Position numbers and translations under genes: made by a program
The notes under the pieces: model-generated
Database searches by the model: none
What the model was told of the DNA's origin: nothing
What the model saw: the letters and a program-made list of their open reading frames with translations, nothing else
Assembly (NCBI GenBank): GCA_013239625.1
Contig: MU053754.1
Coordinates: forward strand, 1,221,966 to 1,285,965
Reading direction: 5' to 3'
Origin: Lama guanicoe
Taxonomy: Eukaryota
Length of the DNA: 64,000 bases
Shown here: positions 5,967-57,190 of the stretch, one piece after another
Layout: every line of letters begins with the position of its first letter
Numbering within the stretch: the stretch's first letter is position 1

Positions 5967-6064
5967 TGCACAGTCACAGTGATGGAATCAGATCCTGAAT
6001 CTAGCTCTTTCTGATTGCACAGTCACAGTGATGGAATCAGATCCTGAATCTAGCTCTTTCTGAT
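5967..6064 (+). repeat. Perfect 49-bp tandem duplication inside a MIR remnant
   Basis: tgcacagtcacagtgatggaatcagatcctgaatctagctctttctgat twice (5967-6015, 6016-6064). Confidence 0.95.
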
Positions 6065-6937: not shown

Positions 6938-7461
6938 CTGAGGAGCAGCACAGAGGAACACTTCTGCTCCCACTCACCGCTGGGCCACTCAGAGCTGCAG
7001 AGTCAGCTGAGATGTCATCCAACATCGGGCAGGTATGTTTCAGCTCCCGCACCAGGAGCCACACCTCCATAACAAAACACCTGTGATGCGTCCAAGATCA
7101 GCTCAGCTCTTGGCCAGTATTTCTCAGTCGACACACTACCAATCGCAATCAAAGCAGTTCTTTCTAAGTGACGGGAGAGATCAGACTGAGAAGGTAACAG
7201 GTTTCAGAAGTAGAAATGGATAGACAAGTCTTGGAAGTCTTCCTTTGTCCAAGGAGGAGAGGCAGACCCCCTTCTTGGAGAAGACTGAGCTTTCCTGTGG
7301 GACTATGAGTATCTCAACAGGCCATTTGGATATGTAAAGAGAAAGCCTCATCGTATTCTCCAAAGGCAAAGCTCAGAGTTACAAGGAGTTAAGCAATCCT
7401 GTGTGTTAACACAGGCAGCTTTCAGCAATGGGAGCAGAGCTGCGGTTGCAGAGGTAATGTA

Positions 7462-7882
7462 TCTTCCTCGACTTACAATGGGGCTGTGTCCCCTTCGCAG
7501 CTGAGCCCAGCCAACCTTAAATGTGCTCAGAACACTTAGTCTAGCCTGCAGTTGGACAAAATCATCCAACAAAAAGTCTGTATTACACTGAAGTGTTGAA
7601 CATCTCAGGTAATTTACTGGACACTGTGCTGAAAGTGAAAAACAGAACATCTGTGTGGGTGTGGGATAGCTGTCCACCCTTGTGACCAGGCGGCTGCTGG
7701 GGCGGTGAGGGGGATGGGGCAGTGAGGAGGATGGGGAACGGCAGCTCACGACCACTGCCCAGCATCACCAGAGGGCACCATACCCCATATCACCAGCCCA
7801 GGAAAGCATCAGAATTCAAAATTCGAAGTACACAATCTACTGAATGTGTATAGCTTTCGTGTCATCATAGGCCGAGACCATC
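7462..7882 (+). mobile_element. Tigger5/MER47-like DNA transposon (duplicate at 10802-11222)
   Basis: cctcgacttacaatgggg...ccttaaatgtgctcagaacactta...aattcaaaattcgaagtac...ctactgaatg. Confidence 0.85.
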
Positions 7883-8165
7883 CATCTTGTAAGACTGATC
7901 AGGGGAATAAAGGATTTCCTGCCCTCTCTGGGGAAGACTGGAATGGGATCCTGAACTCCTCGTGGGGGCAGAAATCTGGGCCCTGGAAATGGCAGCAGGC
8001 TGGGAAATGGAGAGAGAGAAAGGAGAGGCAGCTGGATTTGGGGAGCCTGGATGCATGAACCATGATAAATGCACCAGTTTCCGGCACTGTACTTCTCTCC
8101 GGCCAGCCTGACACCTTCAGTGCTAGCTCATCCAGGACACGGATGAGGCTATGAGGATGTGAACC

Positions 8166-8478
8166 CAGGTGCAGGTATTGGCGTAGGCACAGGTGCAGAC
8201 GTGCACGCAGATGCAGACGTACACACACATGTGGATGTCCGCGGTGTAGGTGAGGGCACAGATATATGGATAGAGAGGTAGATATGGAGCTGTACTTACA
8301 GATGTAGCTACGACTTTAGCTTTAGGTGCGGGGAAAGATGTAGATATAGTTGAAAAGTTACAGTCATAGCCATAGACACAGAAAAGAAAAAGACAGCTTG
8401 AGAAATAGACGTGGCTGTAGAAGTAGCTGGAGGTGGAGATGTACAAAGAAACAGGTGGGGACGTAACTAAAGACATGG
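8166..8478. repeat. Degenerate period-6 simple repeat (GTAGAT/GCAGAC-like; duplicate at 11506-11818)
   Basis: Runs such as gcaggt gtaggc acaggt gcagac gcagat gtagat atggag gtagct. Confidence 0.7.
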
Positions 8479-8495
8479 AGCATCAGGGCTCATAC

Positions 8496-8715
8496 TCCTG
8501 GGTTCTTCGCACTGACAATCACCAACACACCGAAGTCGAACACCCAGAGCTGTCCCTGAACCTCCGGGGATATCTCAAGCACCGTCATACCCGGCCCCTG
8601 ACCCACATAAATTAGGCAGTGAGGAAGGCCAAGAGGAGCATCATGGTCTGCCCGGCACCTGCCTGCTTCATCGGCGCACATGGTCTCGTTTTCATAGATA
8701 TGAAATAAGTATTTA
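8496..8715 (-). pseudogene. Exon carrying the start codon and signal peptide (copy 1)
   Basis: Acceptor ttgtgctttacag|, donor gga|gtatga, Kozak cagaccATGA at 8644. ATG to donor is 149 nt, one short of phase 0. Restoring 1 nt gives MMLLLAFLxCLIYVGQG, a signal-peptide-like start. CpG-richer than its flanks. Confidence 0.6.
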
Positions 8716-9423
8716 CTGTAAAGCACAACATATGCCTCAAATTAGACTCTGTGGTCTCCGATCTACCAGCTCTAATTAGTCATGATCGTCATTAGGTGAG
8801 AAAAGTGTCTCCTGTACGAACTTTCCAAGAATATTTAAACATAAGTCATTTAAAAGCATGTTAAAAATCAGGTACCCATGACAACTAGCTACCATACTGC
8901 AATATCTTTGTTTATACAGTGCCCGGGCGAAGAGTTTTATCATTATCTTAGTGTATTAAATAATTTCATAATGATCTGTCACGTTCACTCTGCATTCACT
9001 TCAAAAGCTAATTTTAAATTTTTTGAGTATATATGTTTTAAACAATTAAGGCTAACATCACTTTATAAAATATAAACCATGGCTACATGTTTATTTTACA
9101 CCTTCTGTTGTCAGAGTAAATAGAGTTAGAAAAATATTCAAGCTAGTGTCTATTTTAAATTCTAGAAAATCCAGATAATTCAAATTTCCAGTATATAGTG
9201 TAAAATCCTTTCTTAATGATTTTATGCTTAAAAATTGGTCATGTGGACACTTAAATATCGTAAATTCTACTGTACTGTCCTATGCTCTCCCAACTAATTC
9301 CAACAAAATTAAATGGGACACAATTTGTATTTTAAAAGGTAGGTACTCTATCAAAAAATTGAAATTCCTCCACCATTTTCTTTAGTGGTCTGCAGACAAG
9401 CCTTCCTTCTCTCGAGGACACAC

Positions 9424-9573
9424 CTGTACCCTCAGATTTGGGTCCTCCAGGGAAGGAAGCAGTGCGAGTGCTGGGTCTGAGCCCGGGGTCAAGGTGTAGC
9501 TGAGAGATGTCAATGACGGAGATGAAACGACAGTAATGACACAGAACACCAGAGCAGTAAGGCTGAAGGCTCT
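9424..9573 (-). other. Candidate upstream (5'UTR or coding) exon; duplicate at 12764-12913
   Basis: Acceptor ttttatttctgtag|, donor cag|gtgtgt; 150 nt, two frames open; lies 0.7 kb upstream of the signal-peptide exon. Confidence 0.35.
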
Positions 9574-11835
9574 CTACAGAAATAAAACCCCATACCTGAG
9601 GTGAAGTCAGTGCAAAAGGGAGACCAGAGGTGGAATCTGGATTGATTTATCAAGTGCAAAATGGAATGAGGACATGGATTTGGAACTGCAGATAAACTCC
9701 AGGTGCAGATACCCAAGGGCAAGATCGGCCTATAGAGCAGGACAAATAGGACAGACGCTTGTTTGGTGATGAAATAATCACATAAGTAGTGCCCACGTCA
9801 CAGGACTTCTCCAAAAGATCACAGCTTTGGAATATCAGAAATGGAGTTAAAGCTGTACTAACAGGTAGTAAATCTTCTTGAGGACTTATCTTTAAGGAAA
9901 TACAGAAAAACCTTGAGCACAGAGATTCTGCTCAGAATATTATTTATAATGGTAAAAAATGAGAAACAACCTAAACATAGAAAATAAAGGTATGGCTAAG
10001 TAAAGTACGGTTCCTCCGTTTGACAGGAAAGCACATAGAAAATAAATCAGCAACAATAATAAAAGCTAAGACAATAGGCGTGGTTCAGGGAAAACGCCTC
10101 AAACGTTAAGTAAAATGGCTTATATTAAGGTAATCTTTCAGATCTAGGCCCATCCTTTTGTTTACAGAGCCCAGATATCTTTAATAAGACAGGCTACCAG
10201 GGTACCAGTCCCTGGAGTTTTCGTAAAACTTTCTGGAAGATTTCTCAGGCTCTTCATATCAGTGACACAGGATTTTCAACCTGGCCACACGAGTGAGCCC
10301 TGCAGCGCTTTTTTCCAACCATGGGCTTACTCTGAGTTTCAGTGCATTACCCTTAGATTCAAGAGCAAATCAAAAAAGGATGGAATAATGTTACTCAGAA
10401 ACAGGGGTCTGGAAGTGGTTTCTACGTGTGTCTCATCCTCAGGCTCCATCCTTGAGACCTTGTTTCGTCCTGTTCCCGCCCCCTGCCGAGAACGCAGTCT
10501 ACCTTGGTTTGCCACCTCCTTCTCATTAGCTTTCTCAGGACCTGTTTGGTCTTTGAGCTACAGCCTCCTGGGAGTCACAAATACTGATTTCACTAAATTC
10601 ATTCATTTATTTCAAAAATAAGTATCTATTGTGTTCTGCACCTCCAAGCATTATGTGAACCACACACACACACACACACACATAGCCTCATCGTATTCTC
10701 CAAAGGCAAAGCTCAGAGTTACAAGGAGTTAAGCAATCCTGTGTGTTAACACAGGCAGCTTTCAGCAATGGGAGCAGAGCTGCGGTTGCAGAGGTAATGT
10801 ATCTTCCTCGACTTACAATGGGGCTGTGTCCCCTTCGCAGCTGAGCCCAGCCAACCTTAAATGTGCTCAGAACACTTAGTCTAGCCTGCAGTTGGACAAA
10901 ATCATCCAACAAAAAGTCTGTATTACACTGAAGTGTTCAACATCTCAGGTAATTTACTGGACACTGTGCTGAAAGTGAAAAACAGAACATCTGTGTGGGT
11001 GTGGGATAGCTGTCCACCCTTGTGACCAGGCGGCTGCTGGGGCGGTGAGGGGGATGGGGCAGTGAGGAGGATGGGGAACGGCAGCTCACGACCACTGCCC
11101 AGCATCACCAGAGGGCACCATACCCCATATCACCAGCCCAGGAAAGCATCAGAATTCAAAATTCGAAGTACACAATCTACTGAATGTGTATAGCTTTCGT
11201 GTCATCATAGGCCGAGACCATCCATCTTGTAAGACTGATCAGGGGAATAAAGGATTTCCTGCCCTCTCTGGGGAAGACTGGAATGGGATCCTGAACTCCT
11301 CGTGGGGGCAGAAATCTGGGCCCTGGAAATGGCAGCAGGCTGGGAAATGGAGAGAGAGAAAGGAGAGGCAGCTGGATTTGGGGAGCCTGGATGCATGAAC
11401 CATGATAAATGCACCAGTTTCCGGCACTGTACTTCTCTCCGGCCAGCCTGACACCTTCAGTGCTAGCTCATCCAGGACACGGATGAGGCTATGAGGATGT
11501 GAACCCAGGTGCAGGTATTGGCGTAGGCACAGGTGCAGACGTGCACGCAGATGCAGACGTACACACACATGTGGATGTCCGCGGTGTAGGTGAGGGCACA
11601 GATATATGGATAGAGAGGTAGATATGGAGCTGTACTTACAGATGTAGCTACGACTTTAGCTTTAGGTGCGGGGAAAGATGTAGATATAGTTGAAAAGTTA
11701 CAGTCATAGCCATAGACACAGAAAAGAAAAAGACAGCTTGAGAAATAGACGTGGCTGTAGAAGTAGCTGGAGGTGGAGATGTACAAAGAAACAGGTGGGG
11801 ACGTAACTAAAGACATGGAGCATCAGGGCTCATAC

Positions 11836-12055
11836 TCCTGGGTTCTTCGCACTGACAATCACCAACACACCGAAGTCGAACACCCAGAGCTGTCCCTGAA
11901 CCTCCGGGGATATCTCAAGCACCGTCATACCCGGCCCCTGACCCACATAAATTAGGCAGTGAGGAAGGCCAAGAGGAGCATCATGGTCTGCCCGGCACCT
12001 GCCTGCTTCATCGGCGCACATGGTCTCGTTTTCATAGATATGAAATAAGTATTTA
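11836..12055 (-). pseudogene. Duplicate of the signal-peptide exon (copy 2, inside the tandem duplication)
   Basis: Same sequence as 8496-8715 at offset +3340, including the apparent 1-nt frameshift. Confidence 0.55.
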
Positions 12056-14159
12056 CTGTAAAGCACAACATATGCCTCAAATTAGACTCTGTGGTCTCCG
12101 ATCTACCAGCTCTAATTAGTCATGATCGTCATTAGGTGAGAAAAGTGTCTCCTGTACGAACTTTCCAAGAATATTTAAACATAAGTCATTTAAAAGCATG
12201 TTAAAAATCAGGTACCCATGACAACTAGCTACCATACTGCAATATCTTTGTTTATACAGTGCCCGGGCGAAGAGTTTTATCATTATCTTAGTGTATTAAA
12301 TAATTTCATAATGATCTGTCACGTTCACTCTGCATTCACTTCAAAAGCTAATTTTAAATTTTTTGAGTATATATGTTTTAAACAATTAAGGCTAACATCA
12401 CTTTATAAAATATAAACCATGGCTACATGTTTATTTTACACCTTCTGTTGTCAGAGTAAATAGAGTTAGAAAAATATTCAAGCTAGTGTCTATTTTAAAT
12501 TCTAGAAAATCCAGATAATTCTAATTTCCAGTATATAGTGTAAAATCCTTTCTTAATGATTTTATGCTTAAAAATTGGTCATGTGGACACTTAAATATCG
12601 TAAATTCTACTGTACTGTCCTATGCTCTCCCAACTAATTCCAACAAAATTAAATGGGACACAATTTGTATTTTAAAAGGTAGGTACTCTATCAAAAAATT
12701 GAAATTCCTCCACCATTTTCTTTAGTGGTCTGCAGACAAGCCTTCCTTCTCTCGAGGACACACCTATACCCTCAGATTTGGGTCCTCCAGGGAAGGAAGC
12801 AGTGCGAGTGCTGGGTCTGAGCCCGGGGTCAAGGTGTAGCTGAGAGATGTCAATGACGGAGATGAAACGACAGTAATGACACAGAACACCAGAGCAGTAA
12901 GGCTGAAGGCTCTCTACAGAAATAAAACCCCATACCTGAGGTGAAGTCAGTGCAAAAGGGAGACCAGAGGTGGAATCTGGATTGATTTATCAAGTGCAAA
13001 ATGGAATGAGGACATGGATTTGGAACTGCAGATAAACTCCAGGTGCAGATACCCAAGGGCAAGATCGGCCTATAGAGCAGGACAAATAGGACAGACGCTT
13101 GTTTGGTGATGAAATAATCACATAAGTAGTGCCCACGTCACAGGACTTCTCCAAAAGATCACAGCTTTGGAATATCAGAAATGGAGTTAAAGCTGTACTA
13201 ACAGGTAGTAAATCTTCTTGAGGACTTATCTTTAAGGAAATACAGAAAAACCTTGAGCACAGAGATTCTGCTCAGAATATTATTTATAATGGTAAAAAAT
13301 GAGAAACAACCTAAACATAGAAAATAAAGGTATGGCTAAGTAAAGTACGGTTCCTCCGTTTGACAGGAAAGCACATAGAAAATAAATCAGCAACAATAAT
13401 AAAAGCTAAGACAATAGGCGTGGTTCAGGGAAAACGCCTCAAACGTTAAGTAAAATGGCTTATATTAAGGTAATCTTTCAGATCTAGGCCCATCCTTTTG
13501 TTTACAGAGCCCAGATATCTTTAATAAGACAGGCTACCAGGGTACCAGTCCCTGGAGTTTTCGTAAAACTTTCTGGAAGATTTCTCAGGCTCTTCATATC
13601 AGTGACACAGGATTTTCAACCTGGCCACACGAGTGAGCCCTGCAGCGCTTTTTTCCAACCATGGGCTTACTCTGAGTTTCAGTGCATTACCCTTAGATTC
13701 AAGAGCAAATCAAAAAAGGATGGAATAATGTTACTCAGAAACAGGGGTCTGAAAGTGGTTTCTACGTGTGTCTCATCCTCAGGCTCCATTCTTGAGACCT
13801 TGTTTCGTCCTGTTCCCGCCCCCTGCCGAGAACGCAGTCTACCTTGGTTTGCCACCTCCTTCTCATTAGCTTTCTCAGGACCTGTTTGGTCTTTGAGCCA
13901 CAGCCTCCTGGGAGTCACAAATACTGATTTCACTAAATTCATTCATTTATTTCAAAAATAAGTATCTATTGTGTTCTGCACCTCCAAGCATTATGTGAAC
14001 CACACACACACACACACACACACATATGTCATCCAGGGCAGCTGCCACGTCATCAGGGATACAGGCATGGAACACACGAATGACTGCACAGTCACGATTA
14101 AGACAACGGCCACTGAAGAAATAGACAGGGACCCTGGAGACGATTTCAGAGCTGGCGCT

Positions 14160-14600: not shown

Positions 14601-16649
14601 CTGGTCATAATCTCATTGTATGAGGACTGTACTGACAAAAAACAACTTAAGCTGGAGGAAAGTCTTAACAGAAATAGATCTGAGTACATATAACCAGGGC
14701 TGCTTCTTCAGAAGAACAGAGATGTCAGTGCAGCCAGAATACACAGCAGAGCAATTGGCACAAGTAATGTGCTTCAGGACCTCCAAATCCATATGGAGAG
14801 TGAGGATGGGGCAGGGGGTATGGCCAGGGCACAGCTGTGGATGACAGCACTGAGCTCCCTTCATGTAAACGAGGCTGAAGAAGTCCTGCCAGTTGGCCAC
14901 TGCAGATACGTCTGACACAGCATCCTGCCCCAGCTAACAGCACTTCACTAATCCCAGGACTAAATAACACACGGCATGACCACAGGGCACAGTATGAGGC
15001 TGCCCACCTCCAGCACGCACAGAGCCCTCATTTATTACCCTTAGGTTCCCTGGCAAGCTCGCCTCGGTCCACACGCATCCCTGAACTCAGCACTGTGGAG
15101 CCACATCAGACAGATGCTTCCAAGACGTCTCTGTCATTCAAGACCAAAGGTTTTGGCTCCAGCTGTAGGCTCTATTTTGTCTCATCAGGGATCCAAGACT
15201 GCAGTGGATTTCCAAGCATATTTTAAAATTTTCAGACACTCCCAAACTGCATTTATGAGAACAGTAAACCTTAAAACAATTCTAACTTTTAAAAGATTAG
15301 TATCAAAACAGAGACCAGTTACTCAGAAAATGTGTGAAGCACTGATTCTCTGATCTATATCACAAACATGCTTCCATATCCATACACAGTATCTGTGGAT
15401 TTCAACACATTACATGCCTACATCTCATTTTCTTCTTCTGTAAAGTTCCATCTAATAGGATTATAAAAGATTAAATGAGTTAATTGCTCAGCAACAGTGC
15501 TTGGCAAAGAGAAAACAGCCTATAAATGTTAGTTGGTATTGCCATTGTTAATTTATAAAAGATGACTGTATAATTTTATGGTCCAGACCTGGAGCCTTTT
15601 ACTAGCAAAAGTGGAAGCTGGTACTCATTACACCAGGACTGCAGGCATAAAGCTGGACCGTTCCAGGAAAGGCGGGATATGCGGTCTCCACAGACACAGT
15701 CAACATGCTGTGGGTGTAAGCAGTTCTCACCATCATCTCAGCTGAAATCAGCTATGCCTCACGGTCAGAAGGCTGACTCCCGATTTACACAGTTGTATCA
15801 GTGACCCTTGTGGGGCTGGCAGTAGCTAGAAAACAATGCAAGACAGTTGAGAACACTGTTCCATAAGAACCCTAAACCTCTCCTCCAGTACCAGTTCCTT
15901 TGTTGAAGATGCACGGTTGAGCAAAACAGAGTGTTTTGCAATTAAACATCTTTTCTGCAAAAATGCCTCCTCTCCACATAGACGAATATTGAAAGGCTAT
16001 TACTTGTCCAACCACCAACCATTCCAAAGTATCTCAATGGCATGAGTTTGTTGAACAGCAGAGGTATGGAGACTGACCAGGTTAGGGTGCAGTAGAGAAA
16101 GCCTGATAGCATTAATAAAATCATGCATTGACGGAGGAAGCCCTATCTTACAGGTTTCCCCTTAAATGTATCAAACAAAGACTCTGAGCTTTCACAAAAT
16201 GTTCTAATTCCTGACCCTTTTCTAAACGCCCTTGATGTTGAAGAAGAATTTCAAAGTCTTTGAATAGGTTTCCTGACCATCTGCTTCGAAAGCGTGCGTG
16301 TGATCTCTCGTCACTTCTGTGTCTGATATCTGTCCTCTGTGTCTTGACCCAACCTCCAAGCTGATCCTCTTGCTACACATTATCAGCAAACAACTGCAGG
16401 ACATGAAAAATCCTGTAGTGGTGGTAAAAGCCAGATGCCGTGGGAGCAAAGATGTCGGGCTCTGGTCTGCTGTGAAATGCAACCCCTTCTCAGATCCCCT
16501 TCCCCTGGCTGTGCCTTTGGGCACACATCAGCCTCTCTTGGGTGGACCCCAGGAGCAGAATTGCTGGGATGTGGGGGAGACACTCACCACTCCCCAAGCT
16601 GTCTGCAAACTGCTCACCCACACTGGCCTTGCCCACACCACACTGTCCG

Positions 16650-17820
16650 GTTCAGAAATTTTCTCACTCTGAATGATGTAGAAATGTATCTCATTTTGAT
16701 TTCAATTTGCATTTTCCTAAATACTATCTATCTTGAGCATCTTTTCAAGTTCTTATCACTATTCCACATGATTGTTGTTACTGCTAATTTACGTACTTTG
16801 ATGAATTTTCCATTCAAGGTCTTTAACCATTTTCCCTTTGATCTCTTTGTCATTTTTCCAGTTGATGTGCTGGCTTTTCATATCCTGACCAATAATCCCT
16901 TGGTGTGCTGTAGACACATGACAGAGATAATCAGACAGAGACAGAGGTAAGACAGAGAGGGAGGGAGTGTGGCGGGCTGGGGATGGATCCTGTGCAGACA
17001 GCAGACATCTTCATCTACTGTGCCCTGTACCTTTAATGTTAAAAATTTATGGTGACATGTTATGTAAACATTTTAGATTTTGATAAAAATATATTTATCT
17101 CTCTTTTGTTAGTGAGTTTGGTTTTTGCATGTGGCTTAAAAATTTTGCTTTTCACCCTAAAATTATAAAGATATCAAACAGTTTCATTCAAATATTTTCA
17201 AAGCTTCACTTTTCATCTTTAGGTCTTAACCTGTCTCCATCTAAGCTGAGACAGATACCTCATTTTTAAATTTTTTCCTAGAAGGAAAGACAGTTGTCAC
17301 CACAGTTTCCTGAATTCAAATACATGAAAGGGTATATATTTGTGGGTCAGTTTCTAGACCCCAAATCCATGATTTCAGCTCTCTGCAAAAATCTTGACTT
17401 TAAATTATGAAGGAACCCCTTATTTTGTCCTTATTTTTTTGAATTTTCACTATCATTTTGGTTATTCTGGGAAGACTGCTATTATTCGTGTATTTATGCA
17501 TACTTGCCAAATAACAACCAAACAAAACGAACTTACTGGGATTTTTATTGAATGCTCTTTGCACTTATTCACCTCCTTCTGGAGAATCAATATCAGTGTT
17601 ATAAAATCTATCCATTAAATAACTTACATTCATTCTGTTTCCTGGGTCTCTCTACATTGTTTAGCACTCTTGTCATTTTTCTCTACGCAGAATTCATAGC
17701 TCTTTTGTCTGGTAAATTCCGAGGTACGTTATAGGCCCTGTCATCACCGTGGATGAGATCGTTTTCCTCTCACTTGTACTAATCTGGGTAGTTCTGGCGC
17801 AGCAGAACGCCAGTGCTTTC
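16650..17820 (-). mobile_element. Old L1M fragments (partly duplicated at 19412-20290)
   Basis: tatctcattttgatttcaatttgcattttcct...ttgagcatcttttca...tactgggatttttattgaa, L1 ORF2 antisense text. Confidence 0.7.
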
Positions 17821-17830
17821 CCTCTGCAGG

Positions 17831-18955
17831 ACTGAATAAAAGTGCATAACTAAGAACTGTCAGGTAGAATTTTATTCAGCATGTTTAGCTGCGGGTTTTA
17901 TTCAAGACCCTTCTTGGAGGCACTGAATTTTAAAAGGCCTGAGTCAACCCACAGACACGTAAAATGACACACTACACAACGTATCTGAGAGGTTAAAACA
18001 AGCACACAGGTGCTGAGCCCAAGCAGAGTTGAGAAAAGGAACAAACTGGTTGATCTCGTTAGCAAAACCCACGTGGAACAGGTACTTCATCTCGGAATTT
18101 GAACTGAAATACATAGTGAAGTTTGGGCATCCATTTAAGAAGCTCTGGAATAAGTAAATACTTCACAATTTCCCCCTATTTTAAGGCCAATTACAACCTA
18201 ACAATATATATTTTTTAAACCTGGAAAATGGCCCTTAACTTTCTGATTCTTACACATCATAGTCAACTCACTTTAAGTGACATGTGTACATGTCTTTGCA
18301 TAAACCTATGAAAAACACCATTTTGAATGCAACTATGGGGATTGAAGCCTATTGCTTAGGACCTGAATTCTGGCTGTGCTTGGGTATGTGCACATGAGAC
18401 TGTGCTCAAGGGAGGGTGTGCACACAAACCAAGAGAATCTTTCAGTGTCTAGTGTTTTCAGCCACAGCTCCCTGTGATCTGGTCCCTGGAGCCACAGCTC
18501 AGGAAGCCCCCAGTCTGGTGAGGGGAATTTGTGGGAAGTGGGCTCCTGGAGTGAGTCCCCACAGAGACAGGCCGGAGGCCCACACGCCTTTGCTGAGAAG
18601 CCTTCTGTCAAAGAGAGTTCAGCGGACCACGAGGTGGAGGAGAGAGAGGGGTGGAGGACAGGCTACAGAGGGTGCAGATGAGGGGATGCTGCCCAGTCTG
18701 GTCCAGGGCACACCTGCTTGAGTGTTTGGTTCACTTAGTGACAGGAGGGACAGATTGTGACCTTGGCAGTTGTTTCATGGTTGAATGGGGAGTCAACAGG
18801 CAATGTTCACACTATTGGCCACAGTATCAGCATTTAAGCTCTGTTCTGCCACTCAGTATTGTTTTGTTTGTTTGTTTTAACTGCCTGAACTTCTACTTAG
18901 AAAATGTTCCTCAGTTTTCTCTCTGTGTACCTACAGCACTTTCCCTTAAATTAAC
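17831..18955 (+). repeat. Inverted repeat arm A (second copy, arm B, at 20301-21333)
   Basis: Reverse complement of 31795-32944; ORF 18651..18968(+) and ORF 31800..32114(-) give near-identical peptides. Confidence 0.95.
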
Positions 18956-18989
18956 AAATGCATCATAACCAACTCTGCAATTTCTTCAG

Positions 18990-19375
18990 TTTTATTTTTT
19001 GGTGATCTCCTCTTTAGCAACCTTCTAGTGTCGACTAATCCAGAATTCAATCATCAGCTCCCTTTTCTGTTTCTAAGTTCTCTTGCCACAAATTTACCTC
19101 CAATGGTTTAAATATCACCTAAATAATGCTATTCAAACTTGTGCCTCCAAATCTGGAATGTTGGCCTGATGTCTAGATTGATTATCCAACTGCCTATTTA
19201 ACATCTTCACTTGAAAGCCCAAAAATGTACACTTACTCTAGTTTTTCCCTATTTCTATAAATATCATCATTATCCATCTTTCCAGTTGCTCAAGCAACTC
19301 ACAAGCCGTCCTCGATCTAGCCTTTTACTTCCCACCCCATCTGTCTGGGAGTCCTATACTTTCTACCTCTAATGA
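18990..19375 (+). mobile_element. L2 fragment (duplicate at ~21368-21753)
   Basis: atggtttaaatatcaccta...tatccaactgcctatttaacatcttcacttg...ccagttgctcaagc. Confidence 0.7.
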
Positions 19376-21879
19376 AGGATTTTCCACCTGCCACTCAGCA
19401 TGTGAGCTTTTCAGAGGTAAGACAGAGAGGGAGGGAGTGTGGCGGGCTGGGGATGGATCCTGTGCAGACAGCAGACATCTTCATCTACTGTGCCCTGTAC
19501 CTTTAATGTTAAAAATTTATGGTGACATGTTATGTAAACATTTTAGATTTTGATAAAAATATATTTATCTCTCTTTTGTTAGTGAGTTTGGTTTTTGCAT
19601 GTGGCTTAAAAATTTTGCTTTTCACCCTAAAATTATAAAGACATCAAACAGTTTTATTCAAATATTTTCAAAGCTTCACTTTTCATCTTTAGGTCTTAAC
19701 CTGTCTCCATCTAAGCTGAGACAGATACCTCATTTTTAAATTTTTTCCTAGAAGGAAAGACAGTTGTCACCACAGTTTCCTGAATTCAAATACATGAAAG
19801 GGTATATATTTGTGGGTCAGTTTCTAGACCCCAAATCCATGATTTCAGCTCTCTGCAAAAATCTTGACTTTAAATTATGAAGGAACCCCTTATTTTGTCC
19901 TTATTTTTTTGAATTTTCACTATCATTTTGGTTATTCTGGGAAGACTGCTATTATTCGTGTATTTATGCATACTTGCCAAATAACAACCAAACAAAACGA
20001 ACTTACTGGGATTTTTATTGAATGCTCTTTGCACTTATTCACCTCCTTCTGGAGAATCAATATCAGTGTTATAAAATCTATCCATTAAATAACTTACATT
20101 CATTCTGTTTCCTGGGTCTCTCTACATTGTTTAGCACTCTTGTCATTTTTCTCTACGCAGAATTCATAGCTCTTTTGTCTGGTAAATTCCGAGGTACGTT
20201 ATAGGCCCTGTCATCACCGTGGATGAGATCGTTTTCCTCTCACTTGTACTAATCTGGGTAGTTCTGGCGCAGCAGAACGCCAGTGCTTTCCCTCTGCAGG
20301 ACTGAATAAAAGTGCATAACTAAGAACTGTCAGGTAGAATTTTATTCAGCATGTTTAGCTGCGGGTTTTATTCAAGACCCTTCTTGGAGGCGCTGAATTT
20401 TAAAAGGCCTGAGTCAACCCACAGACAGGTAAAATGACACACTACACGACGTATCTGAGAGGTTAAAACAAGCACACAGGTGCTGAGCCCAAGCAGAGTT
20501 GAGAAAAGGAACAAACTGGTTGATCTCGTTAGCAAAACCCACGTGGAACAGGTACTTCATCTCGGAATTTGAACTGAAATACATAGTGAAGTTTGGGCAT
20601 CCATTTAAGAAGCTCTGGAATAAGTAAATACTTCACAATTTCCCCCTATTTTAAGGCCAATTACAACCTAACAATATATATTTTTTAAACCTGGAAAATG
20701 GCCCTTAACTTTCTGATTCTTACACATCATAGTCAACTCACTTTAAGTGACATGTGTACATGTCTTTGCATAAACCTATGAAAAACACCATTTTGAATGC
20801 AACTATGGGGATTGAAGCCTATTGCTTAGGACCTGAATTCTGGCTGTGCTTGGGTATGTGCACATGAGACTGTGCTCAAGGGAGGGTGTGCACACAAACC
20901 AAGAGAATCTTTCAGTGTCTAGTGTTTTCAGCCACAGCTCCCTGTGATCTGGTCCCTGGAGCCACAGCTCAGGAAGCCCCCAGTCTGGTGAGGGGAATTT
21001 GTGGGAAGTGGGCTCCTGGAGTGAGTCCCCACAGAGACAGGCGGGAGGCCCACACGCCTTTGCTGAGAAGCCTTCTGTCAAAGAGAGGTCAGCGGACCAC
21101 AAGGTGGAGGAGAGAGAGGGGTGGAGGACAGGCTACAGAGGGTGCAGACGAGGGGATGCTGTCCAGTCTGGTCCACGGCACACCTGCTTGATATTGGCCA
21201 CGTATCAGCATTTAAGCTCTGTTCTGCCACTCAGTATTGTTTTGTTTGTTTGTTTTAACTGCCTGAACTTCTACTTAGAAAATGTTCCTCAGTTTTCTCT
21301 CTGTGTACCTACAGCACTTTCCCTTAAATTAACAAATGCATCATAACCAACTCTGCAATTTCTTCAGTTTTATTTTTTGGTGATCTCCTCTTTAGCAACC
21401 TTCTAGTGTCGACTAATCCAGAATTCAATCATCAGCTCCCTTTTCTGTTTCTAAGTTCTCTTGCCACAAATTTACCTCCAATGGTTTAAATATCACCTAA
21501 ATAATGCTATTCAAACTTGTGCCTCCAAATCTGGAATGTTGGCCTGATGTCTAGATTGATTATCCAACTGCCTATTTAACATCTTCACTTGAAAGCCCAA
21601 AAATGTACACTTACTCTAGTTTTTCCCTATTTCTATAAATATCATCATTATCCATCTTTCCAGTTGCTCAAGCAACTCACAAGCCGTCCTCGATGTAGCC
21701 TTTTACTTCCCACCCCATCTGTCTGGGAGTCCTATACTTTCTACCTCTAATGAAGGATTTTCCACCTGCCACTCAGCATGTGAGCTTTTCCTTGGGTGTC
21801 CTCACACATAAACATACCCATATAAACACACAGGACATTATGTAGTATTTATGATTTCACATGTAGAAATGTGTGGGTT

Positions 21880-22857
21880 GTGTGTGCACTAGTCGTCTAC
21901 TGTTATATAACAAATACCACAAAACTCAGGGATGAAGGCAACAAACACTGACTGCCTCACAGATTCTGTGCAAGGTTGTGACCACAGTGGGATCTGCTTC
22001 CAGCCTCCCTCAGGTGGTGGTTTGCAGGGTTCAGCTCCTCCCTGGCTGTTGAGCCAAGGATGCCCCTATTTCCTTACTCCACAGGGCAGCCCACAATATG
22101 GCAACTTGCTTCACCAGAGCAAGCTAGCAAGGGGAGCCAAAACCAAGAGAAAGAGCATGGACGCTAGACAGATGTCACAGTCCTTCACACCTTAATCGTG
22201 AAGTGACATTCGTCACTCCTGCTCTATCCTATTTGTTAGCAGTAAGTTCTGTCCACTAGATGTGGACAACACTCAAGGGGAAGGGGTTACAAGGGGACAC
22301 AAATACTGATCTAAAAGACCATCATGTGCCCCTCAGCTTGATTAAATGGAGGCCGACTTCTTCCTGACTCTAGGCCCCTGACCTCCCTTTTCTTAGAGCA
22401 GTCCCTTTAGAAAACTGAAATTGCAAATTCCTTCTCTGGTCCTTAAAGATGTTCACTTTCTTCTAGCCTCTGGCCAGTTTCACAACCCAGGAAAGTCTTT
22501 CTGGAGTGCTTGGGAGCCTCCATATGAAATGGAATCCTCAGGGAAGACAGAGCCCCTATCTCCCAGTCTCTGTAGGAGGGCAGGAGCCTAACTGCTACCA
22601 CTCAGCAAAGGCAGACGGCCTCATCACATCGAGCAAGCTCCCCCCAACATCCTCTAGTCCTTTTCAGTGAGCTCACTCCAGGACTTAAAATCTCTCTCAT
22701 GTTGTTTCAGTGGAGTTGAATTCAGTCTCTCTCCCCTATCGCAATAGTCTTAAATAAGTTCTTCCCTGCCACTTAAAAAAAATGTCTGGTGCAATTTTTC
22801 CTTTAAAACAGGAGGAGATAGGGATCACAAGAGGGCAATTTTGAAGGTGCTTACCAT
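21880..22857 (-). mobile_element. MLT1F-like LTR interrupted by a MER34-like LTR
   Basis: tactgttatataacaaataccacaaaactc...cactcaaggggaaggggttac...aatac; the MLT1 text resumes as ggagg...ggatca after 22810. Confidence 0.7.
22307..22810 (+). mobile_element. MER34-like ERV1 solo LTR
   Basis: tg...cttcttcctgactctaggcccctgacctcccttttcttagagc...ggagttgaattcagtctctctcccctatcgcaatagtcttaaataa...aaca. Confidence 0.75.
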
Positions 22858-25391
22858 TGCCTGTGTGTGTGTGTGTGTCTGTATCTTTAGAAACTGGATA
22901 GGAAGCCTGCATGTAGATCACCCAAAATAGCATTTCAGTTCCTTGTAACTGATACAGTGAGGTATATCTACATATTAAAGAAACACATTTGGTGTTTGGA
23001 AGTGGGGGTGGCACATCCTAGTGGACACAAACACAGTCTTTATATCCTTCACAGGATCAATGCTGTTTTAATGACCCGGGTCTTGACGACCTATAGAATC
23101 ATCAAGAAAAACCCCATTTGGTCCAACCAGGACAGCGTCTCTGAGCAATACTCACTCCCAAGGGGCAAGAGATTAATTTCCCACTGTAACTAGTAATCTG
23201 TGCCCCATTAGACCTAGGACTGTTCCTGGCCCCCATCATTAATGCTCACCAAATGAAAACAAACACAATTTAGGAAAAATGAACAAACCTCCACTGCCTT
23301 CATTGAGAACTCACTTTCCTGCAGCCAGACTTGACATTAACATCTTAATAGCTCTGATAGAATCACTTAGGAGTCTGGCTTCGTGTAAATAGAAAAAATG
23401 TTAATGAGGAGAAAATGTGGGTGATTAATAAATGTGATTGAAATGAAATGACCTTTACTTATTCACTGAATAATTAAAGTAATCAAGGGAGACCCAGCTG
23501 TGATGAAAAAGTCAGAGAATAGACCAAAATACAATTAATAAAAAAACACAACATTCAATATGGTTTGCAGAGGACAGAGGCCTTTTAAAAATTGCTTTTT
23601 AAGTGAAATAGAGTTTTTTCCAGACTGGAGAATGCTTTCATTCAGGAGAGCATCAGCAATGTAACAGCACAGGACTGGACACACAATCCCTATAAAATAA
23701 AAAAGGAACATGCAAAGATCTGTCCTCTGAGTCCTTAGGTATCCTTTGAATTTCAAGTAGGCATTTCCAGTGGCGTTTGATATCGATCAGAAAACAGTGG
23801 TTCAAAGGCACCAGATGACTTCAAGTTCCTCTGTTGTTACTCTCAGGGAAGAAGAGGACGAGGAATGAATTATCCCTAAAAAGGCTGAGTCCTTTCTTTT
23901 GGCAGCAAAACAAGCAGCCCTGTCCAAGAAGCTTGGCAGGAAATAAATCCACATTTGTGGGTCACTGATAAAACTGCCCTCTACTGGAAGTGGCCGGGGA
24001 CATTTGGGCACTACTGCCTTGATCCACTGCTAATACATGTAGTGCAAACCACTGTCGTCACCAAACTTCCTTTGCCACTGCTTTCATCAAAAAACATCAA
24101 CTGCCTAACCTCTAAGCTTTCTTCTCTAAGCTGCATGTTACCTGAGGGCAAAAACTGATTTCATTTCACAGCCCCACACACCATCTGCACCCAGGCACTC
24201 AATACGTGCTTTACAAACGAACCCAATACATCACCGAAGCAGAGATCTAAAAAAAAAAAAAAAGTTATGACTTAGTGAGCTCATCACTTTCATCCAGTAC
24301 ACATTAATTCAGGTGACAGCACTGGAATCCTGCATCAGTATTTCTCCCTGGTACTCTTGTGCTTATTGTGAAAGAGTTGTGAATGTATTAAGTTCGCAGC
24401 TACTATGGGACAGTGCCGCCTGTCGCCCCAAAGTCCTCTTTACCATGCTGAAATGAAGACAGGAGAGTCAGGCCAGCAGAAGTGTCATGTGGAGGACGGA
24501 CAGGTTAGGTGCAGAGAAGAAGGCTGCTTCCCCAGACTCTCCAGAGGACCCTTCTGAAAAGAAACCACCATTCTAGTTTTACTTGTCTCACTGTGGCTTA
24601 TCTTTCTCCTTCTTTTAAAAAAAATATCTTGTTCCTTTGGGGGTGCTTTCCCACTTGTATCTGCTCACATTTTGCTTCTCCCTTCTATTCAGATATTAGC
24701 TGTTTTCTCTCTCCCAGTTTTCTTCAATTTGCTGGCTGCTTTTTCTGGATTTTTATCCTTCTTTTTATAGACCTCCCTCCTCCTGCTTCATTCTCTTCTT
24801 TCAAGTCCTCTTTTCCTTCCTATATCTAACATGTCGACTTGAATTTATCACAGTTATTTAAATACTTGAGTGACGTCCACAGAGCAGTCGTCAGCGGCCA
24901 GCAGTGGAACTGGGAATCCACGAGCAGCAGCCTCAATCCTGAGTGACACCCTGCTGTGCCAAACACAAAGGAAGGCTCTGCTTATTTTTGTGAAGAAAGA
25001 CTGAGCAGCTGCAGGCAAGACACACGGTTAGGGCAAACTGGGCACGGGCTGGAAACGAAATAGTAGAAAAACATCACCCTGCCAATGCCTGCAAAGTTCT
25101 AATTTGACGCACTGAGTACTCAAGTAATAAATTACAAGACATTCAAGTTGAATTGGAGCCTCTAATTCTAAGTCCTAAGAACCTTCCTTCCCTGGTGTGG
25201 ACCTCCAGGCCAGCACTGGTTAGCGCTGAACGTGACGTCACTATTTTCCAAGTCGATTCTTGTGCACATCAAAAGCTTATCTACCTCCATCCCACAGAGG
25301 CCAGGCATGTATGTTTGTTTATGGATGGGTCACAGGTGGCAGACTGAACAGGACTGAGTTCAAAGGTGATTCAAAACCTTCAGTTTAAAAT

Positions 25392-31650: not shown

Positions 31651-31794
31651 AGAGACATATCAAAGGATTTCAGTGTGCTTTTGTGTGCCAGATATTACGG
31701 AAGGCAAATGAATAAGACACAGCCCTCTGAGCTCCACAAGAAGCTCAGAGTCCAGCAGAACCACTGAGCTAACAAACAGTTTTAACACAACAGG

Positions 31795-32944
31795 TTAACT
31801 TACGGGGAAGGTGCTGTAGGTACACAGGGAGAAACTTGAACATTTTTAAAGTAGGAGCTCAGGCAGTTAAAACAAATAAAAACAAACAAACAAACAAACA
31901 AAAAAACAGTGAGTGGCAGAACACAGTGTAAATGCGGAGACTGTGGCCAATAGTGTGAACGTTGCCTGTTGACTCCCCATTCAACCATGAAACAACTGCC
32001 AAGGTCACAATCTGTCCCTCCTGTCACTAAGTGAACCAAACACTCAAGCAGGTGTGCCCTGGACCAGACTGGGCAGCATCCCCTCATCTGCACCCTCTGT
32101 AGCCTGTCCTCCACCCCTCTCTCTCCTCCACCTCGTGGTCCACTGACCTCTCTTTGACAGGAGGCTTCTCAGCAAAGGCGTGTGAGCCTCCCGCCTGTCT
32201 CTGTGGGGACTCACTCCAGAAGCCCACTTCCCACAAATCCCCCTCACCAGACTGGGGGCTTCCTGAGCTGTGGCTCCAGTGACCAGATCACATGGAGCTG
32301 TGGCTGAAAGCACTGGACACTGAAACGTTCTTAGTTTGTGTGCTCACACTCCCTCAAGCCTGTTCTCATATGCACATTCCCAAGCACAGATAGAATTCAG
32401 GTCCTGGGCAACAGGCTTCAAGCCCCATAGGTGCATTCAAAATGGTGTGTTTCATAGGTTTATGCAAAGACAGATCCATGTACACATGTCACTTAAAGTG
32501 AGTTGACTATGATGTATAAGAATCAGAAAATTAATGGCCATTTTCCAGGTCTAGAAAAAATATACTGTTAGGTTATAATTGGCCTTAAAGTAGGGGGAAA
32601 TTTTAAAATATTTACTTATTCCAGAGCTTCTTAAATGGATGCCCAAACTTCACTACATATTTCAGTTCAACCTGTATATGATTCACCTGTTTCAGGTGGC
32701 TTTTCCTAACTAAGGTCACTCACTCTGTGCCTATCTTCTACAATTCTGCATGAATGCAGCACCCGTGCACTTGTTTTCACCTCCGGGGTATGTTGTGGGA
32801 TGTGTCACTCTATGCATCGCTGGGTAGACTCAGCCCTCTTACAATTCAGGACCAATGAAAGGGACTGGAATAAAACCAGCAGCTAAACATGCTTGAGGTT
32901 GACAAATGCTACCTGATGGTTCTTTGTTTGTACTTTTGTTCACT
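31795..32944 (-). repeat. Inverted repeat arm C
   Basis: Manual reverse-complement alignment to 17831-18955: roughly 70% in the outer part, ~90% in the middle, 201/202 in the core. Confidence 0.95.
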
Positions 32945-34847
32945 CACCTCACACTTATTCAACTACTACAGACCAGACACTACATGAAAATATGTGAGGG
33001 TACACACACACACACACACACACTTATGAGTATGTATATGTCTGTCCCTAAATGTTTGTAAGGTAGATAGGGATAGAAAGTGTGTAGTCAGACAATAGAC
33101 AAAAAAGTGCCAACACAGAGACCAACCATGGAAGGCATTCTGGCCGACGAGGAATTCAAGTTGTTCTTTAAATGGTTTTTAGCACATTAGAGGAAGACAT
33201 TAGAGATGATAAAAAGCCTCTAGATATAAACCACTAATTGGGATTTGTACTATTATTTGATATCAAAACTTAATTCACTTAATTTGAGTTACGTATAGAA
33301 TAAGAATTATGAAATTATGTAAAAGTGGCTTACTTAATATTTTTATTACAAGAAACATTTCTTACACAACAAACCCCACTCACATTTGCTCATCCTCTCA
33401 TTGCATTTCCATGTCAGGATGGATATAAAGCCTCGCCATGTACTGATTTAACTGTGAACAAACAGAAGTGGCAATACCAAGTTGAATTTACGTTGTAAAG
33501 TTACTCAGCACCCAACAGTACATCCAAGATCTACCAAAATGCAAAATAAGCAGCTCTCTATTCATCGGTGAGGGACCCTCAGTCTTTTTAATGGAGCCCT
33601 ATCCACAAATACAGAGGCTCATTTAAGCCAGCGGATTGACATCCAGCTATTCTGCAATTCCTGCTCTCCAACCCGATGGGGTAGCGTGCTGACAGCCCTT
33701 GTGTTGGCTCACAACTTTAAAACAAACTGAGATGAAGGCCCTCGTGCTAAGTGCAATAACACACATTTTCAGTCATGGGAAGCCACGGGTACCCGCTGAA
33801 AACGCAGTGTACACTGTATGCAAACAGCATAAAATAACAGCCTACCTGACCGTAACATTAAGGGCTTTATAAAATAAAGTCAGATTACAGCAAAGTAAAG
33901 GTATATGTTTTTCATATTTAAAGCTTATCTTTAGTTCCATGGACTTGAAGACTGTAATCTTTTTCACAATGTATCTATAGGATGAAGCCCTGCTAAGACC
34001 TGTGTGAATAAGGCTATTTCTTGCAGAATCTAAACTCATTGAGATGCATAATAACTACTGCTTTCGGCAGGCAGTGAAAATGGCACCCAAAATTAAAGGA
34101 CAACTTTTCCATCTGCAGAATATCATACCCCATCACTTTGAATCAGGTCTACCATCAATTTAACACTCTGATAAAGCCTCGTGCCTCTGTGGTAATAAGA
34201 GGAAAGAGGTTTACAAATTTTTTAAAATACATTTTACTCTATCACAATAGACCAATTACATGTTTTGATTCGCTAGCACTGCGTTTTCATTTTGTCCATA
34301 ACAAAAATGGACCACTCCATTATCGAGATAGGTAATCAATGTTTTAAAATACAATTTATCAGAAGCATTCTGACTTCCATTCATTCTCTTCATTCATTGT
34401 GCAAAACTGTGTAATGGGCAAAAGTTGTAATTTGGAACGGAATGTTTCACTCTGTCACCCGAACAAGACAAACTAGTAGAAGCAGGTCAGGGTTGTTCTT
34501 TGAAAGAAGAAAGGACGAGACTTCCAGCTAAAGAGATCCAGTGAGACCATGTTCCAGCTCTCCCCTTCCTCAGAATCCCACCCAAAACAGCAAAATGTAA
34601 ACAATCAGGAACTTGAAATACTCATCAATGACACTAGCACAAACCACAAAGGACACAGCAAACTTGGCAAGTATTGTGAAGCCTGGGCCAAGGCAGACAG
34701 CATGACACTGGAGCTCCAAGACACCTTGGGTTTCCCCAAATTCGCTGCCAGGATCCTGAAAGGTCCAGCCTAAAGGTCTTTGATGAGAGGTCTGAGATCC
34801 CAGTTTGGTGGGGCACTGAGGGAGAAAAGGGAATGCTCCTTGCAAGC

Positions 34848-41042: not shown

Positions 41043-41239
41043 TGCACACATCACTATATTTAAAATAAACAACAAGGTCCTACTGTGTAGCACAGGGAAC
41101 TGTATTCAGTATCTTGTAATAACCTATAATGAAAAAGAATATGAAAAGGAATATATGTATGTATAACTGAATCACTGCTGTACACCGGAAACTAACAAAC
41201 ACAACACTATAAATCAAGTATTCTTCAATTTAAAAAAAA
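41043..41239 (+). mobile_element. 5'-truncated young L1 3' end with ~15-bp TSD
   Basis: aacaacaaggtcctactgtgtagcacagggaac...cttcaatttaaaaaaaa; TSD aagaagtgcaaattc (41028-41042) and aaggagtacaaattc (41238-41252). Confidence 0.9.
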
Positions 41240-41836
41240 GGAGTACAAATTCATTGTTGATAAGGTTCTCATTCAAAACAAGTCCTGATGTTATGGTGCA
41301 AAGAAGTAAAAGGGATAAATAAGGCTAAAGGGAACAAAGGAAGTCTTGGAGCATTCCTTTTTTATCCATGCAGCTCTTTTCTTAAGAAGAACATGGCATA
41401 TCTATCTAAAACGTGGGTGAAATAGAGAAAAAGATGAAGAATGCTTTTCAGCAGGTGTCTCCATTCTCCCAATGGATCAACTGAAGAAAATAACTGTTCT
41501 CTCAGGCTTTCGATGATGTTCTTTTACTAATTTAAAGTATCTATTTGCCTCTGAAATAAATGTCCAAAAGAGGAAACACATGTCATGCGTGTTCCTGGAA
41601 AATGTGCTATATGTGAATGTAAGTTTCTCATTTAAAAAAAGGCGTGATGAGGCATTCTTATTTCAACCGTGGAACTGCTGTTGCCTAATGTTTATAGAAA
41701 TGACAACAATGGTCATATTGAATTGTCCTAAGTGGTGTAACTTCAAAGAATAAAGCTTCTTAGGACATTTATTAACTATATGGCACATGGATTAACAATC
41801 AGAAATCATAATACATACTATAATGTGTTTATCCTA

Positions 41837-42134
41837 TTTTATTTTATTTTTTAATTTAAGAATTTTTATTGAAGTGTAGTCAGTTACAATGTGTCAATTT
41901 CTGGTGTACAGCATAAAATCCCTGTCATGTATATACATAGATACATTTATTTTTATATTCTTTTTCATTAAAGGTTATTACAAGGTATTATAGTTCCCTG
42001 TGCTATAGAGAAGAAATTTGTTTTTTAAAATCTATTTTTATATATAGTTGTTAATATTTGCAAATCTCAAAATTTATCCCTTCCCACCCCCTTTCTCCCA
42101 GTAACCGTAAGATTGTTTACTGTTTCACGGTAGT
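41837..42134 (-). mobile_element. 5'-truncated young L1 3' end
   Basis: tttttattgaagtgtagtcagttacaatgtgtcaatttctggtgtacagc; tatccta on both flanks. Confidence 0.88.
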
Positions 42135-43169
42135 ATCCTACAATTTTACAATCTGTCCTTTCTTCGCACCAACATAAATCACAAGACAAGGAAGCCCTTT
42201 CACCAGAGCAGAGCATGGCTACAAGCTCCGAGGACGGAAGGGGGACGCTGGGGGTTCCCAGAAGGCAGGCAAGTGGGCTCCATGCCTCCTTCCATCATGC
42301 AAAATGAGGATAAGTACCGTTAGTCCCCTCGAGGCTGAGATTAGGGTGAAATAAAGGAACCTACATCAAGTCCCCATTAAGCGTTTGTCACATCGTAAGA
42401 GTTCCACACAGGTGGAGAAATGCAGGGATGGAGGAGAAATTTTAGATTCCTCACTGCCACTACTGCAGGCTCCTTACAGGCGTCACAAATGACACTGGTT
42501 GTTTTTCTGCCTTCAAAGTGCGTCTTCCTGCCTCCTGGAACCACCACTCCGGAACACGTGGACACAGGTACTCCGCCTTCCCCACGTGCTTCAGAGGGCG
42601 TGCAAGTGCACGCGGGCACAAGTGAGACACGTTCTCTCCTCAAGAACACGTCTCCAAGCTCCTGCACTGAGCTGGGGGCCATGCTGTCTGCTCAGCCCCT
42701 TCCCACACTCTTGCCGGGCGGGGCTGTGTGTGGGGACAGCACCGAGGCCGCCTAGGGGAGCAGAGACGGACAGGGAAGCAGGGAAGTAACCGTCAGGGAT
42801 GAGGTCAGACTGCACGAGTTCTTCGGGAAGTCCATTTGTGCTCTGACGAGGGTGTTAAGCAGAGGAACCGTGCAGTCTGTGAGGAGCGGGATGCTTGTAG
42901 CTGCGGATCCGGGGCAGAAGCCAGCAGCCCAGCGAGGAGGCTTCTGCAATAACCCCGTTCAGGGAACGGGCGGGGTAGCGGGTGTTGGAAAGGCAGTTAC
43001 ATTCCAGCATAATGTATTTTAATGGTAGAGCCTACAGACTCAAATCACAGTTAGATGTGGAGTGTGAGAGAGACAGATAGACGTACAGACTGACACGAAA
43101 GCACCTGGTCTGAGCAAACGGGCCTGATTTTCATCAGCAGAGACGCTCGCCAGCTAGCATAACGCAGCT

Positions 43170-43665
43170 CACCTGCGCGCCCCCCAGAGCCGCGCGCTCC
43201 CAAGTTGCAGCCAGCACGGAATTTGCAAATACCAACCACGCTCCCGAGGGGAAACATCCATTCACCCTGGACTCATGGCCAGCAGCACTGTAGCTGGGGC
43301 CTGAAGAAAGCTTGACTCACACGCGGATTTTTCTCCCTGGTGCACGCACATGGGGACACGAGACAGCACTTCAGTGCTGGGCTGGACCATTTTAAATGGC
43401 AAAAATCACCGGGGGGGAGGCAGCAGCAGCAGCACAAAAACACAAAAAATGTGGCACTACAGAGACAACCGAAAGGACCCTCGTGTCCAGTCCGAGAGCC
43501 GACACAGGCAGGCAGAGGTCTCGCTGTTCAACGTGCACTGGGAACGTCTCCCCACATCAGTGAACGACCCTGAAAGCGGTGGCTGTATTGATCTGGGGTT
43601 AAAAACACATTTTCGCAAGGAAGGAATTCATAAATACAGACTTCATGAGGAATGCGCATCGACAG
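43170..43665 (-). mobile_element. MER82-like TcMar-Tigger element
   Basis: gacagcacttcagtgc...ccattttaaatggcaaaaatcacc...aaaaatgtggcact...gtattgatctggggttaaaaacacatttt resembles recalled MER82, reversed. Confidence 0.75.
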
Positions 43666-44984
43666 GAGTCCTAGGTGCTCAGATGTCTATTGTTAACGAC
43701 AAATGGGTGCACACGCGGAAGGAGAATGCAAGGGAGACCAGAGAGCAATCAACCAACTCACAGAGGGGGTGGTGCTCTTTGCGCCCTTGGAAGAGGACTG
43801 GCTTACCAGACCCCCCAAAACGCCTACAGCACAAGTCACACTCCTGTATGTCAAGACAGCTGGCCATGAGCCTGGGGGAAAAGAAACAGCGTGACCCAAG
43901 ACAGAAGTAACTGATGCTCAGCCCTGGGGCCAGCGAGACAAGAAGCAGAGAAAGGAGGTGGTCAGTACACACTGAAACACTCAGCTGCAGCAAATCATTC
44001 TCAGCCTGCTTAAAATTCCACTTTTTTTTTTTTTGAAAACAAAAAGGAAAAAGAAAAGAAAAAAAGTCAAATAATTTAATTTTTAAAAATTTACTGCTGG
44101 ACAACTTTTTTTAATGCAGCTCCCTTGGGCATAGAATTCCTCACTAGTGGTAGAAATCGGCCTTATTTGCACTCTGTTTTTACTTTGATCTCTTACCATA
44201 TTCATGTTTTAAGAGGTGAAAAGTCCCAGAGCTGGGTTTCAACAGTAACTAAACAAAAACGTGTAAGAATTCAAACCCCCAGAGTGATGTATTTGCACTC
44301 TGCCTGTGTGCCATAACCACAACTCTAATTCTACTTTTTTTTTTTTTGCCTAAGCATGACCATGGACTTCAAACATTATGCAGTGCAACAGAAAAACAGC
44401 TCAATGCAGCCAAAAAAAAAAAAAAACTACCAAGTTTACACAAGCAAGTGCCTGTTTTTCTTTACCGGTGTTCCGTCCAGCGTCTCCACGGTTCCTCCGT
44501 TTGTGCTTGGAATCCTCATTCTTGGCAGTGGCTTCAGACGTGGTTGACCGTGACGGCGCGAGGCCAGCCAGCCTAGCACCCCAGAGGCCACGTAGTGAAC
44601 TCTGGCCCTCGCACATGCGGAAGCGTGCTTTACCAAAGGGTGGGAGGAGCCACGGAGTAATAGGCGAGGGTCTGCCGGAAACATCAGACTTCTCCAAAAT
44701 TTTGGGAAGGAAGATTTGAATCTGCGTTCTAGGAAAGACGTTTTGGCCAGAAAAAGTGCAGTGTCTGTCACACGTGAGTGAGAGAATGGGTAGCTTCCAT
44801 TACTGGGGTGTTCGCTCTGAGTCTAATTTAGGTCCATGAGAGCAAAGTGCACCCCTACAGTAGAATCCAATTATTTCAGTGAGGGTCCAGTTGCAACATA
44901 TGATTCTGGGGGAAGTGTGAACAGAACCCTACCTCATTTTTACATAAAATGATTTTTTACCTTGTGACTCAGTATTTTTCTAAG

Positions 44985-56978: not shown

Positions 56979-57010
<32 letters not shown>

Positions 57011-57190
57011 ATATATATACCGCATCTTCCTCATCCAGTCATCTGTCAATGGACATTTAGGTTGCTTCCATGTCGTGGCTATTGTAAAAAATGCTGCTAT
57101 GGACATTGGGGTGCACATATCTTTTCAAATTAGAATTTCCTCTAGATATATGCCCAGGAGTGGGATTGCTAGATCATAGGGTAACTATAT
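56500..57190 (-). mobile_element. Young L1 3' fragment with internal (TG)n
   Basis: tttactgaagtacagttga...caggtgtacagcatagtgattcagttata...tatgcccaggagtgggattgctagatcat. Confidence 0.92.

Follow-up and report, generated by a model that had tools for sequence, protein, structure and literature searches.

A candidate gene-conversion tract between the arms of an inverted repeat in a 64-kb window of Lama guanicoe

Layout of the window and its copies

The window, meaning the whole stretch of 64,000 nucleotides that was analysed (Lama guanicoe, assembly GCA_013239625.1, contig MU053754.1, positions 1,221,966 to 1,285,965 of the forward strand), is CpG-poor vertebrate DNA without N. Self-comparison finds in it four near-exact head-to-tail doubles, one of which is formed by the copies named here A and B. 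Each of these copies holds the left arm of an inverted repeat, whose right arm, C, lies some 13 kb from A, so that arms of 1.1 kb surround 10-13 kb of unique DNA (self-BLAST). The copies and arms are as follows.

16942..19411, plus strand: copy A, 2470 bp, which opens a head-to-tail double or represents one of the haplotypes of a single locus (self-BLAST, pairwise alignment, junction check)
19412..21790, plus strand: copy B, ~2378 bp, second unit or other haplotype, without 91+1 bp (self-BLAST, pairwise alignment, junction check)
17830..18955, plus strand: left arm of the inverted repeat within A, at 20300-21333 in B (self-BLAST, alignment)
31794..32945, minus strand: right arm C, putative donor, ~85% identical overall to the left arm (self-BLAST, alignment)

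Copies A and B meet at a junction with 1 bp of microhomology (the base C). A reading of the window made from its letters alone, hereafter the sequence-only reading, had put their identity outside the patch described below at more than 99%, and the pairwise alignment agrees with it (8 substitutions in 2268 bp, 99.65% identity). In a search with word size 7 the homology of the arms goes no further than 17830-18955 and 31794-32945, and a sensitive search of the 64-kb window for a further copy of the arm had E=0.24 as its best score. Exact-pattern scans of metagenome contigs for an outgroup copy gave no match.

The arms lie in apparently non-coding DNA. Pfam gave no match at the curated cut-off for 148 open reading frames and none at E<=0.005 for 142 and 78 further ones, these being 368 frames selected among the 909 of at least 38 aa and located outside copy B, 10700-14000, and ~21800-23500, a set in which short exons may escape detection. 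The search with Rfam had no match in 1-21900 and 23000-64000, a crude splice-site scan returned four unconvincing candidates, and a protein search with the open frame of A that crosses the patch returned a single candidate and none at E<=0.001. As these searches detected neither genes nor RNA families, there is at present no functional effect to propose. Four segments (138-752, 41046-41240, 41838-42121, and 56501-57192) are mutually similar at 69-85% identity, which makes them a family of interspersed repeats; in its sequence, the frame at 637-915 looks like the end of LINE-1 ORF2. The region 42001-44000 is rich in CpG (77 CpG and 53% G+C in 2 kb, versus 13-47 CpG elsewhere) and is possibly a promoter or enhancer, with no gene identified there.

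The patch shared by A and C

Within the left arm, A, B, and C can be compared column by column, and the following features were delimited by alignment.

18624..18825 at the widest, 18631-18823 at the narrowest, plus strand: putative converted tract in A, 193-202 bp
31940..32141, minus strand: putative donor segment in C, pairing with A 18624-18825
21094..21203, plus strand: counterpart in B, apparently unconverted, differing from C by 4 substitutions over 110 aligned bases and by two gaps
18722..18812, plus strand: 91-bp segment present in A and C and absent from B, the junction in B (21191/21192) being blunt, without microhomology
18461..18623, plus strand: apparently older homogenised block beside the tract, A/C 5.5%, B/C 4.3%
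18573 (G>C) and 18618 (G>T), plus strand: A-private substitutions to the left of the tract, B being equal to C at both

In the tract, A and B differ by substitutions at 18631, 18679, 18692, and 18706, by the 91-bp gap (A 18722-18812), and by a 1-bp gap (A 18823). Both three-way and pairwise alignments confirm what the sequence-only reading had noticed, that A equals C at all six. The earlier statements that the sole A/C mismatch is the CpG site 18804 (TG in A, CG in C), and that informative sites place the ends of the tract at 18623-18631 and 18823-18826, likewise stand. A and C thus have 1/202 mismatches in 18624-18825, including an exact run of 180 bp, outside of which all exact runs between A and C or B and C are shorter than 50 bases. 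The claim that A and C differ by about 6% just outside the tract holds on the left side (9/163, 5.5%) and fails on the right, where the difference is 18/127 (14%). The patch of near-identity is bounded on both sides, a paralogous donor is present in the window as the inverted arm, and the genealogy switches locally, with A grouping with C inside the tract and with B outside it.

The six events at which A equals C are consecutive among the 73 polymorphic events of 18114-18955, an arrangement that was never obtained in 200,000 shuffles. It was obtained once in 200,000 when the two indels were merged and 13 times in 200,000 when substitutions only were used. With 10 bases between the 1-bp gap and the 91-bp junction, the two gaps may be one event, which would leave five events rather than six and would leave the right end of the tract to be defined by the A/C comparison only. 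The pattern is real and statistically clear. The isolated B-private sites 17958 and 17978 are far from the tract, among sites where A equals B. Sequencing error as the source of the A/B differences was rejected, at least half of them being transitions and several falling at CpG. Purifying selection as the source of the A/C identity was rejected as well, as 91 bp of the patch are missing from B, whose distance from C is that of the background.

Along the arm as a whole, the divergence between A and C is layered, from ~30% down to 0.5%, and a second well-matched block is found at 18114-18370 (~7%). The B/C mismatches per successive 100 columns are 22, 31, 24, 9, 4, 18, 7, 5, 3, and 15, and none of 20,000 shuffles is as uneven. 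Such patchiness is what repeated conversion would leave. It suggests an old inverted duplication of which the inner part went through several rounds of homogenisation, with the tract as the most recent layer; uneven constraint is the alternative.

Timing, direction, and the 91-bp segment

The sequence-only reading had proposed that C overwrote A after A and B separated, and this is well supported. Inside the tract B is at background distance from C (4/110, versus 7/163 next door, Fisher p=1.0), and A is not (1/202 versus 9/163, p=0.006), whereas A and B differ far more in the tract than elsewhere (4/110 versus 8/2268, p=0.0016). The old local rate between B and C predicts 5-8 differences in the tract, and four are observed. 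Were these four changes all new and private to B, 0.4 substitutions would be predicted in ~111 bp from the A/B background, for which the probability of four or more is 7e-4. Old B/C divergence is favoured, by a likelihood ratio of 70-240, over new changes arising in B at the rate of the A/B background; the ratio shrinks if the deletion in B was mutagenic. At 18679 the alignment has CG in B and TG in both A and C. CpG decay usually runs from CG to TG, and the TG is probably a derived state common to A and C, a decay in C that would have been copied into A. Since the background of B agrees with the left arm to either side of the tract, we infer that C donated the sequence and A accepted it. Conversion in this direction later than the split, whatever the history of the 91 bp, is very probable.

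The divergence of 0.5% between A and C in the patch calls for a recent homogenising event, whether this is placed before or after the parting of A and B. The histories of the 91-bp segment differ in when it was lost. That the conversion restored to A a segment lost earlier from the left arm is somewhat favoured. B/C divergence is higher to the right of the deletion (18/139) than to its left (11/261, p=0.002), as expected if an old deletion had shielded that side from earlier tracts, although it could also be an effect of the arm edge, given that the outer end of the arm is 17-30% divergent too. The tract moreover stops 10-13 bases beyond the deletion point, as expected of minimal rejoining. 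Against restoration, the right flank is a poor rejoining site, with just 12 matching bases followed by sequence that is 14-18% divergent, and primate non-allelic conversion yielded 455 deletions versus 132 insertions, with a bias that is stronger for long indels (PMC3280953), so that copying in 91 bp is the rarer direction. Alternatively, C overwrote A after the split in an ancestor that had the 91 bp, and B later lost 91+1 bp by one blunt end-joining event. This history shares the substitution evidence, spares copying across a 91-bp heterology in the direction disfavoured by the primate data (PMC3280953), and explains the right end of the tract by the fall in arm identity at 18826; the blunt deletion with a 1-bp gap 10 bases off also resembles one complex event. 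Yet it squeezes the deletion into the B branch since the split (~0.18% per lineage), versus a time ~10x longer since B and C last matched (~1.8% per lineage), and it does not predict the higher divergence to the right of the deletion. We regard it as unlikely, while giving it real weight.

The remaining explanations are each improbable to a different degree. One could suppose that homogenisation of the arms came shortly before the A/B split and that all six differences are a cluster of mutations in B around the deletion. Break repair can be mutagenic, according to a review (PMC4052342), and A/B differences are raised just outside the tract as well, at 18573 and 18618. Besides the low probability of so many substitutions in B given above, however, the changes (G>A, T>C, C>T, and G>C) have no common strand or context signature, one of them must give rise to a CpG, and there are about as many of them as the old B/C background would give, which makes a cluster in B improbable. 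Slightly less credible still is a reciprocal exchange, in which the spacer was inverted and then re-inverted with crossovers ~200 bp apart, or a double crossover occurred, so that the patch was swapped and a C taken from the other haplotype hides the B-type patch. The geometry is suitable, with inverted repeats flanking a unique segment of 10-13 kb, humans provide documented examples of inverted repeats between which inversions recur (PMC3961182), and C may belong to either haplotype if A and B are alleles. But the exchange requires two crossovers between arms just 85% identical, in which exact runs were shorter than 50 bp before the event, a weak substrate for crossing over, and the assembled C has the 91 bp and the A-type bases, so that the transfer is one-way if A, B, and C are on one chromosome. 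Finally, the window is seemingly rich in possible assembly doubles, and the tract of A could be a chimera of assembly or polishing built from C reads. At the switch points, however, the exact match between B and C is just 7 and 2 bases, far too short for crossing in an assembly graph, mis-mapped C reads would also have placed C bases at 18580, 18604, 18623, 18826, and 18829, and A is unlike C at 18804. Such an artefact is very improbable.

The account that we prefer, conversion of A by C after the split with restoration of 91 bp lost earlier from the left arm, is held at slightly better than even. Its steps would be these. A break would have occurred in or near the left arm, after the A and B lineages parted, and would have been repaired with the inverted arm C as template, that is, by ectopic gene conversion and most simply by synthesis-dependent strand annealing. 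The broken end would have paired in the ~95%-identical block to the left of the tract (18461..18623), which is the likely landing pad for strand invasion. Some 200 bases of C would then have been copied, including the 91 bases deleted earlier from the left arm, and the end would have been rejoined 10-13 bases past the old deletion point, with B retaining the older state of the left arm. The two A-private substitutions at 18573 and 18618 count against this account, as they are not explained by copying the assembled C. Both are within 51 bases of the left edge of the tract, which has a probability of ~0.004-0.017 at the background rate for sites chosen post hoc, and they may be repair-linked mutations, tiny conversions of B, or chance.

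Comparable systems and the status of A and B

Interlocus gene conversion has reportedly been described in human duplicates by Vollger et al. in 2023. Four of the seven features listed for an interlocus gene-conversion tract were found for A, namely the donor, the bounded patch, the change of genealogy, and the length. Human non-allelic conversion tracts have a mean of 250 bp (CI 63-1000; Harpak et al., 10.1101/135152), which the 193-202 bp of the tract fit, and gene conversion accounts for 2.7% or more of the variants in human duplications (Dumont 2015, PMC4467073). Human interlocus conversion resembles the tract in being a short patch of ~250 bp between paralogs of the same chromosome, which changes the genealogy locally and can segregate. 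The present case differs in its short (1.1 kb), old, and 85%-identical arms, in a setting where no gene was found, and in the 91-bp difference in length that may be part of the tract. This last aspect recalls the conversion-induced insertions of Assis and Kondrashov (2012, PMC3280953), where a length difference between paralogs is likewise removed in one lineage; those were polarised by an outgroup, unlike A, B, and C, and long insertions are their minority class. Inverted arms that exchange sequence around a spacer are also known from Y palindromes (Hallast et al. 2013, PMC3723533) and from inversion polymorphisms (Aguado et al. 2014, PMC3961182). However, the arms of the Y palindrome P6 are >99.9% identical and have multi-kilobase tracts (PMC3723533), in contrast with 1.1 kb and 85% here, and the inverted repeats around the unique segment are known here from the single orientation of one assembly, in contrast with the polymorphic inversions (PMC3961182).

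The process is ordinary and well described, and the tract is a fresh example of known interlocus conversion. Its value is modest: it illustrates cleanly, for teaching, a short conversion between inverted repeats that have diverged. Restoration of the 91 bp, if it took place, would supply one data point for the rarer direction of insertion.

The three-way comparison of A, B, and C survives whether A and B are alleles or paralogs. They are probably two haplotypes of one locus that the assembler left uncollapsed, and a real tandem duplication is the less probable, though sizeable, alternative. The other three doubles of the window bear on this choice.

7344-10683 and 10684-14022: double of 3340 bp, 6 substitutions in 3339 (0.18%)
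5967-6064: perfect 49-bp double in unique sequence
58887-59044: 80-bp double, the first copy carrying one more base close to its end

A count of four near-exact doubles per 64 kb is, in our judgement, high for real duplication. A CA repeat, longer in one copy than in the other, closes the 3340-bp double, which is either a real young duplication or a pair of uncollapsed haplotypes. The two large doubles have junctions with ~1 base of microhomology, and their divergences, 0.18% (6/3339) and 0.35% (8/2268), are not distinguishable (p=0.28; pooled 0.25%). Heterozygous SNP rates in South American camelids are 0.0018-0.0030 (PMC7331169), a range that contains the pooled value; A and B diverge at about that level, which a young real duplication would match too. 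False duplications stem mainly from haplotypes left uncollapsed, mostly with a gap between the copies (PMC9516828). The heterotype false duplications of Ko et al. (2022, PMC9516828) resemble A and B in being adjacent near-identical copies that differ by about the heterozygosity; there is, however, no gap between A and B, and no N in the window, which counts against the allelic reading, although a gap may have been wrongly filled. When words sampled from 16500-22500 were sought in 24 read runs, 20 of these held 0.70-0.80 of them and none held a share near 1.0; up to 0.91-0.92 is expected from an animal with one allele and 0.99 from one with both, and ordinary variation blurs the distinction between a single locus and a double. 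Near-identical head-to-tail copies in this assembly may be uncollapsed alleles, a warning that bears on its other findings of young duplication.

If A and B are alleles, the tract is a segregating polymorphism and C may come from either haplotype. As a long shot, A and B could be living alleles in which one ectopic repair event recopied the long-lost 91 bp from the 85%-identical arm, rejoined on ~12 bases, and gave rise, in the resected flank, to two G transversions on the same strand. Were this so, the tract would be a segregating and genotypable example of a long insertion driven by conversion, one that runs counter to the deletion bias and has repair-linked mutations next to it.
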